From an uncultured Bacilli bacterium (GTDB lineage: Bacteria; Bacillota_I; Bacilli_A; RF39; UBA660): a DNA stretch of 64,000 nt. This document shows positions 8,698-46,840 of this stretch, piece after piece. The number at the start of each line of letters is the position of its first letter. Position 1 is the first letter of the stretch. The position numbers were made by a program, and so were the translations under genes. The notes below the pieces were generated by a model. It was given only the letters and a program-made list of their open reading frames with translations. It ran no database searches and was not told the origin of the DNA. The stretch spans positions 53,411-117,410 of the forward strand of contig CAKPOS010000003.1 of the NCBI GenBank assembly GCA_934176955.1, read 5' to 3'.

Positions 8698-8807
8698 TTA
8701 TTTTTTTATGAACCAAAAATACTTATTTAGATAATTCTTTATTTAAGAGAATGAAACTAGTTAAGTATTTTAATTGTATATAAGAAGTGTTAGGGAAGAG
8801 GGATAGA

Positions 8808-10008: not shown

Positions 10009-10118
10009 ATTACTGTTTCATTTTTAGTTATAAGTTTAGATGAAGATTTAATGTGAATACTTATAATATGATTAATTTATTTTTTATGAAATTAAGGAAA
10101 GGGGAATGAAATATGTGT

Positions 10119-10163
10119 AAAAACAATTAAGTAATATATGTGATATATCCTTAATTGTTTTTT
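10119..10163 (+). terminator. strong hairpin terminator
   Basis: 13-bp perfect stem aaaaacaattaag / cttaattgttttt with an 18-nt loop and a T-rich tail. Confidence 0.6.
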
Positions 10164-10277
10164 GTTATTGTATCAAATTTATTTTGAGAAGTCTTTAGTT
10201 TTAATTTTATTTACAAAATAAAACTTGTGTGAAATAAATTTAAATGGTAATATAAGAAATGCTTAAAAGGAGGAATT

Positions 10278-11378
10278 ATGGAAAATAATAAATTTAAACA
10301 ATTTTGTAGTTCTATTGATTATGATACTTATTATAAACTTCAAACTATTTTTGGATTTTCTAGTGTTGGGGTTTCTTTGACTAGTGATTTGATGTTATCA
10401 CAATATCCAATTTTGGGTAGTTCATTTGAAGTTTTAACATATCTTTTGTTTTCTGTATATTGTGGATTGTTTTTTTCGAAGGGTAAATATTATACAAAAG
10501 ATTTTAATCAAATTAGAAGTTTATATCAAGAGTTTATTACTAATTATAATCAATTAAATGAAATATTTGATTTTAATGATCCTATTCAAATTTATGTAAT
10601 GTATAATTATTTATTGGAAAAAGGTTATTTGTCTGTGAATAAAAAATTTGAATATTTAAACCAAGCGGGAAAGGATATTAAAATATTATATGGTGCAGAT
10701 GTTATAATGGGAAAAGGATGTTGTCGACATATTTCTGCTATGCTTACAGATATTTTAAATGATTATGGAATTGAATCTAGTCAATTAGGAGTATATTCAT
10801 TTAGATATGGTGTAAATGTAAAATTTTTAGAATATCCAAAATATACAAAAGAGGAATTAATTGATTGGGTTCAAACTCATATAACTGCTGAAAATACGTA
10901 TATGAAAATGATGGAGATTATTAAAAATTTAGTTGATGAAGAAGGATTAAGTATTGAATTGTCAACTAGGATTACTAAAGATAAAAATATATTAAAAAGA
11001 AAAATTGGTAATCATGCAATAACTTTTTCAGTTAAAGATGGGAAGAGTTATTATTTGGATCCTACTGAAGTGGTAATTTATAGGGTGAATGAGGAAGATA
11101 AAAATATATTGTGTGATGGAAAAGGAAATGCTATTTCAATTAAATTTTTGGGCTCAACTATTTTAAATGATTTTTCAGATTATTTGAAAAAAGAGGTATT
11201 ACAGCAATATCCTAGTGTTACTCGGGAAGAAGAGAAGAAAATGATTGTAAAAACGACTATGGATTGTAAAAATAATATGGATATATTTGAAAAGTTTTAT
11301 CATGAAAATAAGGATTTATATGGTGATATTTCTGATAAAATGTTAAAAATTAAGAAGAAGCCATTTATGGGCAGATAA
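10278..11378 (+). CDS. membrane-anchored transglutaminase-like cysteine peptidase (putative)
   Basis: Two N-terminal hydrophobic helices. GKGCCRHISAMLTDILNDYGIES resembles the transglutaminase-core G-x-C-x-x-F/I-A motif. A later GNHAITF...YYLDPTE gives a Cys-His-Asp arrangement. Confidence 0.55.
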   Translation: MENNKFKQFCSSIDYDTYYKLQTIFGFSSVGVSLTSDLMLSQYPILGSSFEVLTYLLFSVYCGLFFSKGKYYTKDFNQIRSLYQEFITNYNQLNEIFDFNDPIQIYVMYNYLLEKGYLSVNKKFEYLNQAGKDIKILYGADVIMGKGCCRHISAMLTDILNDYGIESSQLGVYSFRYGVNVKFLEYPKYTKEELIDWVQTHITAENTYMKMMEIIKNLVDEEGLSIELSTRITKDKNILKRKIGNHAITFSVKDGKSYYLDPTEVVIYRVNEEDKNILCDGKGNAISIKFLGSTILNDFSDYLKKEVLQQYPSVTREEEKKMIVKTTMDCKNNMDIFEKFYHENKDLYGDISDKMLKIKKKPFMGR

Positions 11379-11528
11379 GTGAAAAATACTTATTTAGATG
11401 ATTTCTATAAAAGAGAAAGAATTTATTTAGGTATTTTTTTAATTAAATGGTTTAATATTTTTAGAAAGTGGTATTAAAAAAGGAGGTTGTATATTCTTAA
11501 AATATATGATTATTTGTCTAAATACAAG

Positions 11529-11549
11529 TGTAACTATTTACACCCTAAA
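11529..11549. repeat. left arm of a 21-bp inverted repeat (tgtaactatttacaccctaaa)
   Basis: The reverse complement of 11992-12012 matches at 20/21 positions. Confidence 0.8.
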
Positions 11550-11566
11550 AAAATACATAACAAATG

Positions 11567-11590
11567 CCAGCTACTTAAGTAGCTGGTTTT
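11567..11590. terminator. hairpin terminator between convergent genes
   Basis: ccagctac-ttaa-gtagctgg followed by tttt on the + strand. Confidence 0.6.
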
Positions 11591-11620
11591 AGCTTATCTA
11601 ATTCATCAAAAGTATATGGT

Positions 11621-11911
11621 TCACCATTTACAAGTTTTTTTATTAACTTCTTTTTGAACTTTTTCTTCAACAGTTTTATTAAAATCATCTGTTAGTGAGA
11701 TATATCCCTTTTTATAATAATTTTGAAGATTATTAACTCTATTGACTTCCTTTTTTAAATCTTTTACTTTGCTTTTCAATTCTTGATTTTTTTGTTCTAA
11801 TTCATCTATTTTTTTTGAAGGAATCATCAAGTTTTTTTTTTTTTTTTTTTTTTTATTTAGTTCATCAATTTGTTCTTTTTCACGATTAATATTATCATCC
11901 ATGATTTTCAC
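11621..11911 (-). CDS. small Lys-rich coiled-coil protein containing an A23 tract
   Basis: 96-aa ORF with heptad-like EQ/K-rich sequence. It stays in frame across 23 consecutive A residues (11832-11854), which encode KKKKKKK. Confidence 0.45.
   Translation of the reverse strand: MKIMDDNINREKEQIDELNKKKKKKKNLMIPSKKIDELEQKNQELKSKVKDLKKEVNRVNNLQNYYKKGYISLTDDFNKTVEEKVQKEVNKKTCKW
11832..11854. repeat. homopolymer T23 (A23 on the coding strand)
   Basis: Counted directly from the sequence. Confidence 0.95.
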
Positions 11912-11991
11912 TACTTTCTACAATACATAGATTATAACAAAAAAGATTATAAATTAAAAGCATAAATTATAGGATATTCGCATACTCAAAA

Positions 11992-12012
11992 TTTAGGGTG
12001 TGAATAGTTACA
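11992..12012. repeat. right arm of the 21-bp inverted repeat (tttagggtgtgaatagttaca)
   Basis: Pairs with 11529-11549. Confidence 0.8.
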
Positions 12013-12041
12013 ACGAACTAGTTATCTACATGTGAAAAAAC

Positions 12042-12070
12042 TTGCTTTTTTTTTTTTTTTTTGATATTTT
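12042..12070 (+). promoter_or_regulatory. candidate promoter whose spacer is a T17 homopolymer (12046-12062)
   Basis: TTGCTT (12042-12047), 17-nt spacer made almost entirely of T, then TATTTT (12065-12070). It lies 57 nt upstream of the GTG start at 12127. Confidence 0.35.
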
Positions 12071-12126
12071 TTAGATAACTAGAAGATAAATAATTTTTAA
12101 TTATAGCGGTTGGAGAGTGGTTCTAG

Positions 12127-14742
12127 GTGAAGAAAGATAAAAGGAAAATAATTGGGGGATTTGTTGGGATAATATTATTTATGTGTTGTGTTACTTATTT
12201 TACGTATGCTTTTTATCAATGGAAGAGTGGTAATAGTGATGTTAATTTAACGATTAAAGATTCAACTGGAGGAGGAGAATGTTCTAATGGACCTAATGTA
12301 GATGTTTCTAATATTGGGCCTGTTTTAAATGTTAGTGATGGAGTAAAAGCTAACTTTTCTGTAAAAAATAAAAGTTCTTCTAGTATTTCTTTAACTTTAG
12401 GGTTAAAGATTACTTCAATTAGTAATCCTCTTAGAGTAGAATCTTTTAAATATGCTTTATATCAAGATACAACAGGGAATGATACTTTTGATTATAGTAC
12501 TAATCCTATTTTATCAGGTGATTTTAGTAAAATGCGTGTAGGAGATAATACATTATCTACTACTTTAACAGTAGAAAAGGAAAGTACTTATTCTTTTCAA
12601 TTTATTGTCTATATAGATGGAAATATGGAGAATGATTCTTCAATGATGAATAGTAGCTTATCCGCTTCAATTACTTATGGAGATTGTACGAATCCTTATA
12701 CCTATTTAGCAAGTGTTGAGCCGGGTAGTTATGTAAAATATATAGGTAATAATGGTTGCTCAGGAAAGTCTTGTGAAGGGCAGAATGCAAACTATGTTAG
12801 TGATACGGATATGGGATATTGTTATGGTTCAAGTTACAAATATAATGCAAATGGATGGCGCGTTGCTTATGTAAAAGATGGTACAGCTTATTTAACTAGT
12901 GCAGGTTCCCCTGAATGTATGTGTACGAATAATGATGGGACATCAGGGACAAGTTGTAATGGTTATGAAACAACGGATGGGATACCTAAGCATATAGCAA
13001 ATTTAAATTCAAAAGCTTTAGCTTACTGCAACAGTACTTATGCGTATGGGGGAAAGTGTGACAGTAATAGTGCATGGAATATGGCAGATGCAGACTTTCA
13101 AACTATTACAGGTGATAATTTAATTACAGCTTATAAAAAATCAAATTATAATAGTTATTCCATTATTAATAATGGGGGATATTATTGGTTTGCGACATCT
13201 GATTTTTCGTCCATGGTTGCGTTCTATTGGTACCCGAGCAATTGGAATGTGAATAGCAGCCGCTCGGAATTTGCGTACGGTCTTCGTCCAGTCCTACGTC
13301 TTGCCTCTTCCGTCATCGTGACAGGAGGCTCAGGTACCTATGAAGATCCTTATACAATTACAAATAAAATCACTAAGTTATCTGAAGCTGGAGAAGGTTC
13401 TTATGTAAAATATACAGGAAATAATGGTTGTTCAGGAAAGTCTTGTGAAGGACAGAATGCAAACTATGTCAGTGATACTGATATGGGATATTGCGATGAT
13501 TCTAGTTATAAATTTAACGCAAATGGTTGGCGTGTTGCTTATGTAAATGATGGTACAGCTTATTTAGCTAGTGCAGGATCACCTGAATGTATGTGTACCG
13601 ATAGTGATGGAACAGCAGGGACAAGTTGTAGTAATGATGAAGAAACAGGCGGATTGCCAAAACATATAGCAAATTTAAATTCAAAAGCTTTAGCTTACTG
13701 CAACAGTACTTATGCGTATGGGGGAAAGTGTGACAGTAATAGTGCATGGAATATAGCAGATGGCGACTTTCAAACTATTACAGGTGATACTTTAAGTACA
13801 CGTTTTAACTACTCAGGTGGTTATTATGATAGTTATTCCATTATTAATAATGGAGGATATTATTGGTTCGCGACGCCTCTTAGTTCCTCGTCCTCGTACG
13901 CTTTCATTTGGGACCCGAGCGGCTATCGAAAAGTGGCCGGCAGCTTCTCCAATATTTCGAACGGTCTTCGTCCCGTCCTACGTCTTGCTTCTTCCGTCGT
14001 CGTGACTGGAGGCTCTGGTACTTATGAAGATCCTTATACGATTTCAAACGGAAACACTAAGTTATCTGAAGTGGCACCCGGTAGTTATGTTAAATATACA
14101 GGAAATAATGGTTGCTCAGGAAAGTCCTGTGAAGGGCAAAATGCTAACTATGTTAGTGATACCAATATGGGATATTGTTATAATTTTGATTATAAATATA
14201 ATGCAAATGGATGGCGCGTTGCTTATGTAAAAGATGGTACAGCTTATTTAACTAGTGCAGGTTCCCCTGAATGTATGTGTACGAATAGTAATGGTGTAGC
14301 TGGAACAAGTTGTGGTAGTGATGATGTGGAAGAAACAAACGGATTGCCAAAACATATAGCAAATTTAAATACAAAAGCTTTAGCTTATTGTAATAGTACT
14401 TATGCGTATGGCGGAAAATGTGATAGTAATAGTGCGTGGAATATGGTAGATGCAGACTTTCAAGCAATAACAGGGGATACATTAAGTGCAGCTTATGATC
14501 AATCAGGTGGTTATTATGATAGTTATTCCATTATTAATAATGGAGGATATTATTGGTTCGCGACGCCTCATAAATCCACGTCCACGTTAGCGTTCTATTG
14601 GGCTCCGAGTGATCGACTCGTGAACAACTACTACTCGAACAGCGCGTACGGCCTTCGTCCAGTCCTACGTCTTCAATCTTCCGTCACTGTGACAGGAGGT
14701 ACAGGAACATATGTAGATCCATATAAGATTGAAATTAAATAA
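12127..14742 (+). CDS. surface/secreted protein with an N-terminal signal anchor, an Ig-like region and three tandem Cys-rich modules ending in GLRPVLRL
   Basis: 871-aa ORF with GGAGAG RBS and GTG start. The TM segment is IIGGFVGIILFMCCVTYFTYAF. The triplicated module is described under findings. Confidence 0.8.
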   Translation: MKKDKRKIIGGFVGIILFMCCVTYFTYAFYQWKSGNSDVNLTIKDSTGGGECSNGPNVDVSNIGPVLNVSDGVKANFSVKNKSSSSISLTLGLKITSISNPLRVESFKYALYQDTTGNDTFDYSTNPILSGDFSKMRVGDNTLSTTLTVEKESTYSFQFIVYIDGNMENDSSMMNSSLSASITYGDCTNPYTYLASVEPGSYVKYIGNNGCSGKSCEGQNANYVSDTDMGYCYGSSYKYNANGWRVAYVKDGTAYLTSAGSPECMCTNNDGTSGTSCNGYETTDGIPKHIANLNSKALAYCNSTYAYGGKCDSNSAWNMADADFQTITGDNLITAYKKSNYNSYSIINNGGYYWFATSDFSSMVAFYWYPSNWNVNSSRSEFAYGLRPVLRLASSVIVTGGSGTYEDPYTITNKITKLSEAGEGSYVKYTGNNGCSGKSCEGQNANYVSDTDMGYCDDSSYKFNANGWRVAYVNDGTAYLASAGSPECMCTDSDGTAGTSCSNDEETGGLPKHIANLNSKALAYCNSTYAYGGKCDSNSAWNIADGDFQTITGDTLSTRFNYSGGYYDSYSIINNGGYYWFATPLSSSSSYAFIWDPSGYRKVAGSFSNISNGLRPVLRLASSVVVTGGSGTYEDPYTISNGNTKLSEVAPGSYVKYTGNNGCSGKSCEGQNANYVSDTNMGYCYNFDYKYNANGWRVAYVKDGTAYLTSAGSPECMCTNSNGVAGTSCGSDDVEETNGLPKHIANLNTKALAYCNSTYAYGGKCDSNSAWNMVDADFQAITGDTLSAAYDQSGGYYDSYSIINNGGYYWFATPHKSTSTLAFYWAPSDRLVNNYYSNSAYGLRPVLRLQSSVTVTGGTGTYVDPYKIEIK
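12691..14715 (+). repeat. three tandem coding repeats: R1 12691-13344, R2 13345-14028, R3 14029-14715
   Basis: Unit boundaries are set at the recurring (D/N)PYT(I/Y) motif. R1 and R2 share a 92-nt perfectly identical stretch (12991-13082 = 13663-13754). Confidence 0.9.
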
Positions 14743-45520: not shown

Positions 45521-45571
45521 GTTTGTTTTCATACTAAAAAAGTGTATAATATACATAGGAGGAGATTTTTT

Positions 45572-46840
45572 ATGAATTATATTAAAAGAATTGTAGACAA
45601 AGAAATTGATGAAAAATTGTCTATTATGGGTGCTGTATTGATAAAAGGTCCAAAATGGTGTGGAAAAACTACTAGTGCAAAGCAAGTAGCAAAAAGTGTT
45701 TTAGAAATGCAAAATCCTGATTTGCAAGAAAATTATATTGAATTGGCAAATACCAAACCATCATTATTATTAGAAGGGGAAAAGCCTAGATTAATCGATG
45801 AATGGCAATTGGCACCAAAGTTATGGAATGCTGTTAGATATTCAGTAGATAACATTGGACTTCCTAATCAATATATTTTAACTGGATCAGCTACGCCTAA
45901 TGAAGATGATACCCTTCATAGTGGTGTAGGAAGGTTTGCTTTCGTTGCAATGAAACCAATGACTTTATATGAAAGTGGAGATTCTAATGGAGAAATTTCT
46001 TTATTCAATTTATTGAATGGAAAACGTAATATTGATGGGATTAAAACAGATTTAACTTATGAAAAAATAGCCTATGTCCTTTGTCGTGGTGGGTGGCCTA
46101 GTGCTTTAAAATTACCAGAAAAATCTGCTTTAGAAATTGCTAAAAATTATATTGATGTATTATGTAATTCTGACATTTCTAGAATAGATGGCACTAAAAG
46201 GGATCCGTCACTTGCTAAAATGATTTTAAAGTCTTATGCAAGACAAGTTTCAACAATTGATTCTAATCAATCATTATTTGATGATGTAAAGGCAAATTAT
46301 TCAGATATAAGTGATAGAACGATTATGGATTACTTAAATGTATTGAAAAAATTATACATTATTGAAGAAATTGAGGCTTGGAGTCCTAATATTAGAAGCA
46401 AAACTGCCATTAGAACTTCTCCTAAGAAAAGTATGATAGATCCTTCTCTTGCTGTAGCGGCTTTAGGATGTTCACCTAAAGATATCATGATGGACATTAG
46501 AACATATGGATTATTATTTGAAAATTTAGTAAATAGAGATTTAAGTGTTTATGTAAAATCAATTGGAGGTACCTTAAAACATTATAGAGACAGATATGGC
46601 CTAGAATGTGATAATGTTATTCATTTTGATGATGGTAGGTATGCTTTAATTGAAACAAAACTTGGAGGGACTAGGATAAAAGAAGCAGAAAACCATTTAA
46701 TCACTTTAAAAAATTTAATTTTAGAAAATGAACCAAAAATAGGTAGTCCAGAATTTTTAATGGTTATTACGGGAACCGATATGGCTTATACTACAGAAAA
46801 AGGAGTATTGGTAGTTCCGATTGGATGTTTAAAAAATTAA
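45572..46840 (+). CDS. AAA-family ATPase with a DUF4143-like C-terminus (COG1373 type)
   Basis: AGGAGG RBS 9 nt before ATG 45572. Walker A GPKWCGKTT and a restriction-endonuclease-like C-terminal part (ECDNVI...ALIETKLGG). Confidence 0.7.
   Translation: MNYIKRIVDKEIDEKLSIMGAVLIKGPKWCGKTTSAKQVAKSVLEMQNPDLQENYIELANTKPSLLLEGEKPRLIDEWQLAPKLWNAVRYSVDNIGLPNQYILTGSATPNEDDTLHSGVGRFAFVAMKPMTLYESGDSNGEISLFNLLNGKRNIDGIKTDLTYEKIAYVLCRGGWPSALKLPEKSALEIAKNYIDVLCNSDISRIDGTKRDPSLAKMILKSYARQVSTIDSNQSLFDDVKANYSDISDRTIMDYLNVLKKLYIIEEIEAWSPNIRSKTAIRTSPKKSMIDPSLAVAALGCSPKDIMMDIRTYGLLFENLVNRDLSVYVKSIGGTLKHYRDRYGLECDNVIHFDDGRYALIETKLGGTRIKEAENHLITLKNLILENEPKIGSPEFLMVITGTDMAYTTEKGVLVVPIGCLKN

Follow-up and report, generated by a model that had tools for sequence, protein, structure and literature searches.

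Features of the locus

The window, the whole stretch of DNA analysed here, is 64 kb of chromosomal sequence (27.7% G+C) from an uncultured spore-forming Firmicute (‘Bacilli bacterium’ or ‘Tenericutes bacterium’ in the labels of MAG pipelines), with genes for SpoIIGA, sigma-E, Lon, BacA and a sortase, and an hrcA-grpE-dnaK-dnaJ cluster. A 484-bp segment bounded by inverted repeats sits in it between the gene for a 366-aa protein, upstream, and the gene for an 871-aa predicted surface protein (Table 1). The 871-aa protein is a member of a large family of variable proteins, and its residues 192-418 are about 75% identical to residues 644-871. Other strains carry alleles of 643, 740, 869 and 875 aa, and the 5′ part of this gene is where many metagenome contigs break off; 12127-14742 is a hypervariable surface-protein locus. 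Neither paralogues of the 871-aa protein nor further copies of its upstream region were found in the window. Elsewhere in the gene neighborhood, an AAA_14/DUF4143 ATPase gene lies between dnaK and dnaJ in three other contigs (L005, 10859-12172; L009, 6382-7725; L012, 4900-6213) and is absent there in the window, which has a gene with AAA_14 and DUF4143 domains at another place, 45542-46840.

Table 1. Coordinates of features of the 484-bp segment and of the adjoining surface-protein gene, with the identities proposed for them
Feature	Position	Strand	Remarks
Left arm	11529..11549	+	TIR at the 3′ (transposase-distal) end, called IRR; IS terminus proper, GTAAC, from 11530
G+C-rich hairpin, transposase 3′ end	11566..11587		Stop codon in loop; same hairpin and place in the L018 relic
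Last ~19 transposase codons (LVNGEPYTFDELDKLKPAT, then stop)	11575..11634	-	Out of frame with the N-terminal part; within a 37-aa ORF
Internal deletion junction, T7 run	11635..11641		Zinc finger and DDE domain of the transposase lost here, ~1.2 kb
96-aa ORF, N-terminal coiled coil of IS66-family transposase, pseudogene fragment	11621..11911	-	GTG start; ATG at 11902
T23 tract, poly-Lys within the 96-aa ORF	11832..11854		Hypervariable homopolymer
Probable transposase 5′ UTR and promoter region	11912..11991	-	Extended -10 TGtTATAAT; conserved in the L017, L018 and L048 relics
Right arm	11992..12012	-	TIR at the transposase-proximal end, called IRL; 21/21 identical to the IRL of L016
Probable surface-protein gene promoter	12042..12070	+	Outside the element; TTGCTT, 17-nt spacer that is mostly T17 (12046-12062), TGaTATTTT
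871-aa predicted surface protein gene	12127..14742	+	N-terminal hydrophobic segment, no Pfam hit; neighbor of the relic, not part of it

The two arms, TGTAACTATTTACACCCTAAA and TTTAGGGTGTGAATAGTTACA, are complementary at 20 of 21 positions and lie 442 nt apart. With up to 3 mismatches allowed, the 21-mer has only these two copies in the 64-kb window, where about 0.01 would be expected by chance. None of 100 shuffles held two copies, which rules out a chance origin of the inverted repeat. The arms reported in the earlier note are therefore real.

Other parts of that description needed correction. The hairpin exists, at the coordinates of Table 1 rather than at 11567-11590; our scan called it terminator-like on both strands, with the T-run on the plus strand. 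The 3′ end of a 37-aa ORF (11688..11575), in a frame other than that of the 96-aa ORF, falls inside it. The 96-aa ORF, which is lysine-rich and coiled-coil, is also there, although it is no complete gene, as described below. The right arm is indeed close to the T17 tract, at a distance of 33 nt instead of 34. This tract and T23 are the only homopolymers of at least 10 nt in the window. Pfam gave no informative match for the 96-aa ORF or for the 871-aa, 366-aa, 198-aa and 203-aa neighbors.

Identity of the arms

The arms read (T)GTAACTATT[T/C]ACACCCTAAA and start with 5′-GTAA, as in the ISBst12 group of the IS66 family. We scanned GTDB, one genome per species, with the pattern TRTAACYATTYAYACCCTAAA, which began with T so that AGTAAC variants were missed; the one relevant match was in an uncultured Tenericutes MAG (L016). 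There the exact right-arm sequence forms the left end of a complete 1743-bp element, consisting of IRL TGTAACTATTCACACCCTAAA, a single 535-aa ORF and IRR TCTGGGCTGTGAATAGTTACA, and the termini GTAAC...GTTAC are bounded by a perfect 8-bp direct repeat, ATTAGTTT. The ORF matches Pfam DDE_Tnp_IS66 (PF03050) at 9e-17, as well as zf-IS66 and DUF6444, and it matches NCBIfam transpos_IS66 (NF033517) at 5.6e-48 over 383/387 profile positions, with a score of 164 bits that is slightly below the curated cut-off of 180 bits. Its closest relatives among annotated plasmid genes are labelled ‘IS66 family transposase’, from Bacillus, Geobacillus and Deinococcus, at about 29% identity. The 484-bp element of the window had no blastn match among plasmids.

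The ISBst12 group comprises single-ORF IS66 members with ends of the GTAAC/GTGAC type and 8-bp direct repeats; ISDge4, for example, has the TIR GTAACTGCTCAGCA and an 8-bp direct repeat (PMC12898284). The present elements resemble this group (ISBst12 of Geobacillus stearothermophilus, ISDge4 of Deinococcus geothermalis) in repeats that start with GTAAC (here GTAACTATTCACAC), in having one transposase ORF rather than tnpA/B/C, in the 8-bp direct repeats of the intact relative L016, and in a transposase built of N-terminal coiled coil, zinc finger and IS66 DDE domain. They differ in that the window copy lacks zinc finger and DDE domain (~1.2 kb) as well as a target duplication, and in their distance from the named members at the protein level, to judge from the low identity between L016 and the Bacillus copies. 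These comparisons identify the arms as the terminal inverted repeats of an IS66-family element that belongs to the single-ORF ISBst12 type. We also considered that the 21-mer might encode a peptide, CNY[S/L]HPK, conserved at the C-termini of one gene family; the resemblance proved to be an artefact of ORFs running into the IS end.

Transposase fragments in the segment

Aligned with the N-terminal coiled coil of the L016 transposase, the 96-aa ORF shows 32% identity, and the short 3′ frame shares 12 of 23 residues with its C-terminus (..LFDNNPYTVDELRNLKTA). The last ~100 nt of the L016 IS, through IRR, align with the left end of the segment at 72.5%. Since L016 is so distant over the shared N-terminus, the link to it rests on the identical 21-bp end and on intermediate relics. 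Two proteins, P0126 and P0127, open with MDDNINCEKKQNDELNKLKKQLDDS.., at about 81% identity to the window ORF, then pass into IS66 DDE sequence (..HWDDTCATIGKN..VVHDHYKHNY..) and match NF033517 transpos_IS66; the next ORF in contig L018 matches IS66 models. The 3′ end, hairpin and IRR of the L018 relic, whose C-terminal codons read ..DYDELDKLKPAA before the stop, are 91% identical to 11530-11611 of the window. It is L016 together with the relics P0126, P0127 and L018 that shows descent from an IS66 transposase.

The extent of the loss can be read from another relic, L048, whose match to the window spans 11637 to 12011 only (91.8%). After ..KEFNKK both L048 and the protein P0121 go on with INIIKHEYDL.., a stretch that the window lacks, and because they continue where the window homology stops, at 11637, the T7 run at 11635-11641 is the junction of the ~1.2-kb deletion. 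An alternative view of the small ORF as a gene with two homopolymer frameshifts was dropped, because P0121 and L048 account for the T7 break as a deletion junction; the A8 frameshift of the L005 type stands.

These comparisons show the 96-aa ORF to be the N-terminal coiled-coil portion of a transposase from which the zinc-finger and DDE parts have been deleted, and show the hairpin and the short out-of-frame reading frame beside the left arm to be the transposase 3′ end. The small ORF is thus a truncated fragment, and the hairpin the transposase gene’s own. About 86 N-terminal and 19 C-terminal codons remain, and the window copy has no IS66 match in Pfam or NCBIfam; on its sequence, the element is a relic of an ISBst12-group member and not a functional one. 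The whole of 11529-12012 is very probably an immobile, internally deleted IS66-family copy of this single-ORF type.

The state of the internal T23 tract is in keeping with such a fragment. In other strains the site reads TTGTTTTTTTAATTT (strains with the 643-aa or 875-aa allele) or T21, T24, T25, T26 or T29, with T14 implied by P0122, and contigs often break at the tract. Because some strains carry the non-homopolymeric TTGTTTTTTTAATTT, the homopolymer is derived from a run of Lys-rich codons, and it now varies freely. The reading frame is kept across the tract at 2/5 loci that were found independently of frame; such lack of conservation fits a pseudogene.

When 5.8 billion proteins were searched, the reconstructed ORF matched 7, all of them short fragments and P0126 and P0127 among them. 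No intact transposase with the window-type N-terminus was among the proteins searched, so that the window’s particular IS lineage looks extinct or very rare; nor did we find a full-length transposase closely related to the window relic. What is recorded here is an unnamed lineage of ISBst12-type insertion sequences in uncultured low-GC gut Firmicutes, with the window copy as a defunct member; the kind of element is well known. Relics of the same IS in L017 (3821-4230), L018 (3950-4995) and L048 (150-530) are other copies with different deletion end points.

Mobility

As an alternative to a switch, the earlier note had offered a non-autonomous, MITE-like insertion. The derivation from a mobile element has held up, with IS66-family TIRs for arms and a transposase remnant for an ORF; the MITE label fits less well. 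By its make-up (484 bp, 20/21 TIRs, transposase fragments as sole coding content) the segment qualifies as a short TIR element of the MITE type, and it shares with MITEs its small size, TIRs inherited from an IS and the lack of a functional transposase. It differs from them in that the deletion form has not been amplified: a 68-aa ORF specific to this form was confined to the locus that precedes hrcA, in 23 contigs read with 10 places shown. It differs also in lacking an intact 8-bp target duplication. Its flanks are ATACAAGT vs AACGAACT, and in L033 the two sides have only ACAAG in common, which gives no sign of a simple insertion at this site. Occurrence at one locus and the missing duplication together favor an internally deleted IS relic over an amplified MITE.

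A related question is whether a full-length IS66-family transposase, encoded at another place in the genome, might still mobilise the 484 bp in trans. Both terminal repeats are intact, at 20/21, elements of the ISBst12 group can be active (PMC12898284), and a ~110-bp element with the same ends is present in another low-GC contig, L028; against these points stand the single locus, the missing target duplication, the seven short fragments that were all the protein search yielded, and the absence of any other copy of the repeat in the window. We consider an active non-autonomous element very unlikely, and regard the segment as an IS relic that would be unable to move by itself and would not flip. 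The L028 element (~620-730 of JAEEGG010169156.1) has ends GTAACTATTCACACCCTAAA and a near-perfect inverse, is without coding capacity, and is perhaps a true MITE derived from this IS family in another low-GC organism.

Orientation in other assemblies

The earlier note had proposed a recombinase-driven invertible switch, of the kind known from Clostridioides difficile cwpV/flgB and from Bacteroides, in which a tyrosine or serine recombinase encoded elsewhere would flip the 484 bp, turn the internal promoter and the small ORF towards the 871-aa gene and so alter its expression. The resemblance to known invertons is in part close: a near-perfect 21-bp inverted repeat encloses ~440 bp, with 33 nt between it and the T tract in the promoter of the surface gene, and invertible promoter switches such as cwpV/flgB, the Bacteroides capsule promoters and E. 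coli fimS likewise have ~20-bp inverted repeats around a few hundred bp upstream of a gene for a surface structure.

We gathered the locus from independent metagenome assemblies by exact-protein look-ups with the 871-aa protein, HrcA, the 68-aa core of the small ORF and the 366-aa protein. Both junctions were in the native orientation in 18/18 assemblies (17 samples and the window), which report the majority orientation only, and the left junction was native in all three further contigs that cover that junction alone. Both arms are invariant in all samples, the single T/C mismatch included. None of the collected contigs ends at an arm; they stop instead at T tracts (L054-L057) or within the surface-protein gene, in its 5′ part (L008, L009, L012-L014). 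Scanning the JGI metagenomes returned neither inversion-specific nor native junctions and carries no weight, because the species is absent from that collection. Pfam gave no recombinase or transposase domain in 50 ORFs scanned in the 64-kb window.

The putative internal promoter of the segment belongs to the transposase fragment, and the promoter-like site of the 871-aa gene (12042-12070) lies outside it. The segment thus departs from the known switches in its single orientation across assemblies, in having no recombinase nearby, in the external position of the gene’s probable promoter and in repeats that are transposon ends. With the arms fully accounted for as IS termini, and with a sister strain (L002, below) in which the gene’s promoter works without the segment, to go by the intact state of the gene and the conservation of the promoter, the proposed switch is not supported, and we consider it extremely unlikely. 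One further point in its favor, the opposite orientations of IS relics against the same flank nucleotide in L017-type and L018-type loci, is taken up in the next section. If the segment is an IS relic, as we think, an inverton-like repeat pair beside a surface-protein gene has turned out to be a transposon scar, and a false lead is removed.

Relics and rearrangements beside related promoters

Decayed copies of this ISBst12-type lineage recur beside surface-protein promoters. The relics in L017 and L018 abut a homologous poly-T promoter (T16-T18, TGATATAAT or TGATAAAAT; 75-85% identical) upstream of genes for 443-aa and 444-aa surface proteins. At the L018 type of locus, IRR abuts the flank T|AAAGATGAGTTAC, and at the L017 type it is IRL that meets this nucleotide; in L048 the same relic end adjoins an unrelated flank. 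Because the same promoter flank meets IRL in some genomes and IRR in others, rearrangements that broke the DNA precisely at the IS termini took place at some time. They could stem from old intramolecular transposition (of a copy-and-paste IS), from repeated insertion at a preferred target, or from flipping in situ.

A bolder reading is that the ends of this dead IS family still are, or until recently were, precise recombination points that move or flip DNA by poly-T promoters of surface genes. The meeting of the T|AAAGATGAGTTAC..Tn.. flank with either IRL or IRR, the unrelated flank in L048 and a deletion in L002 that stops exactly at a terminus are in its favor; we give it very little credence. 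If a host recombinase or a trans-acting transposase did act reversibly on the ends, a domesticated IS could make the window element a switch that flips on rare occasions. A gene for a tyrosine recombinase (Phage_integrase) of 266 aa or 295 aa is found in L018 (1607-2407) and in L019-L022, where some 1.6 kb separate it from the IS relic and the surface-protein cluster downstream. The enzyme, which has no equivalent in the window, is perhaps a housekeeping Xer recombinase.

In strain L002, which is syntenic with the window, the 366-aa gene is missing, as is almost the whole element. What is left is a diverged 31-bp remnant, TATAACCATTCATACCCTAAAaaatacataa, joined exactly where the other terminus would end. 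The strain retains the promoter region, with T19, and the surface-protein gene, which is intact at 869 aa; since promoter region and gene persist there without it, the element is dispensable for the surface gene. The window has two copies, 82% identical, of the 5′ fragment of a gene (MKNTYLDDFYKRERIYLG..; 11382-11437 vs 8715-8771), and the fragment occurs at 2770-2828 of L002, which lacks 10091-11381, the stretch with the 366-aa gene between those repeats. The position of this gap between repeats suggests cassette-like gain or loss of the 366-aa gene region through recombination between them.

The recurrence of relics also raises the possibility of domestication, in which the immobile element would be retained for the surface-protein locus as a terminator for both directions or an insulator, as a promoter element lying upstream, or through a small coiled-coil protein with a regulatory role. 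The hairpin is terminator-like on both strands, and relic end, ~33 nt of flank and poly-T promoter recur together, at the 75-85% identity given above, upstream of surface-protein genes that are only distantly related (444-aa family). These points are outweighed by L002, which manages without the element, by the variation of the ORF frame across strains, and by conservation among samples that is uniformly ~98-100%, so that no part bears a sign of selection. Retention for a function is unlikely. Any present effect of the relic would rather be incidental; a candidate is that the hairpin keeps transcription of the 366-aa gene upstream from running on into the promoter.

The promoter T tract

The surface-protein gene would be transcribed from its own promoter outside the element, with TTGCTT at 12042-12047, TATTTT at 12065-12070 and TG at 12062-12063, the last giving an extended -10. 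The slippage-prone T tract that fills the spacer, rather than the segment, is the more likely source of any on/off variation in expression of the gene. Its length is 17, 18, 19, 20 or 22 nt among human-gut metagenome samples, figures to which assembly error at homopolymers may contribute. Phase variation by a homopolymer in the promoter spacer is known for Mycoplasma hyorhinis vlp, M. arthritidis maa2 and M. mycoides vmm (PMC2268961). The tract, as distinct from the element, is like these in that the -35-like and -10 hexamers have a homopolymer as their spacer, 17 T giving the 17-nt spacer, and in that its length varies among samples; it is unlike them in its host, a spore-forming, walled, low-GC Firmicute, and the likeness is one of sequence. 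A similar T tract by the vpma promoter of M. agalactiae is without on/off switching (PMC2268961), and for this reason we do no more than infer a function for T17. The tract is a plausible phase switch for the surface gene, a candidate for slipped-strand variation like that of Vlp.

A perfect 11-bp inverted repeat, CTAGTTATCTA and TAGATAACTAG (12018-12028 and 12072-12082), brackets the T-tract promoter. As an invertible unit it was rejected, the 43 bp between its arms being too short and one arm being mutated in L006. The repeat could be an operator, or could be due to chance.
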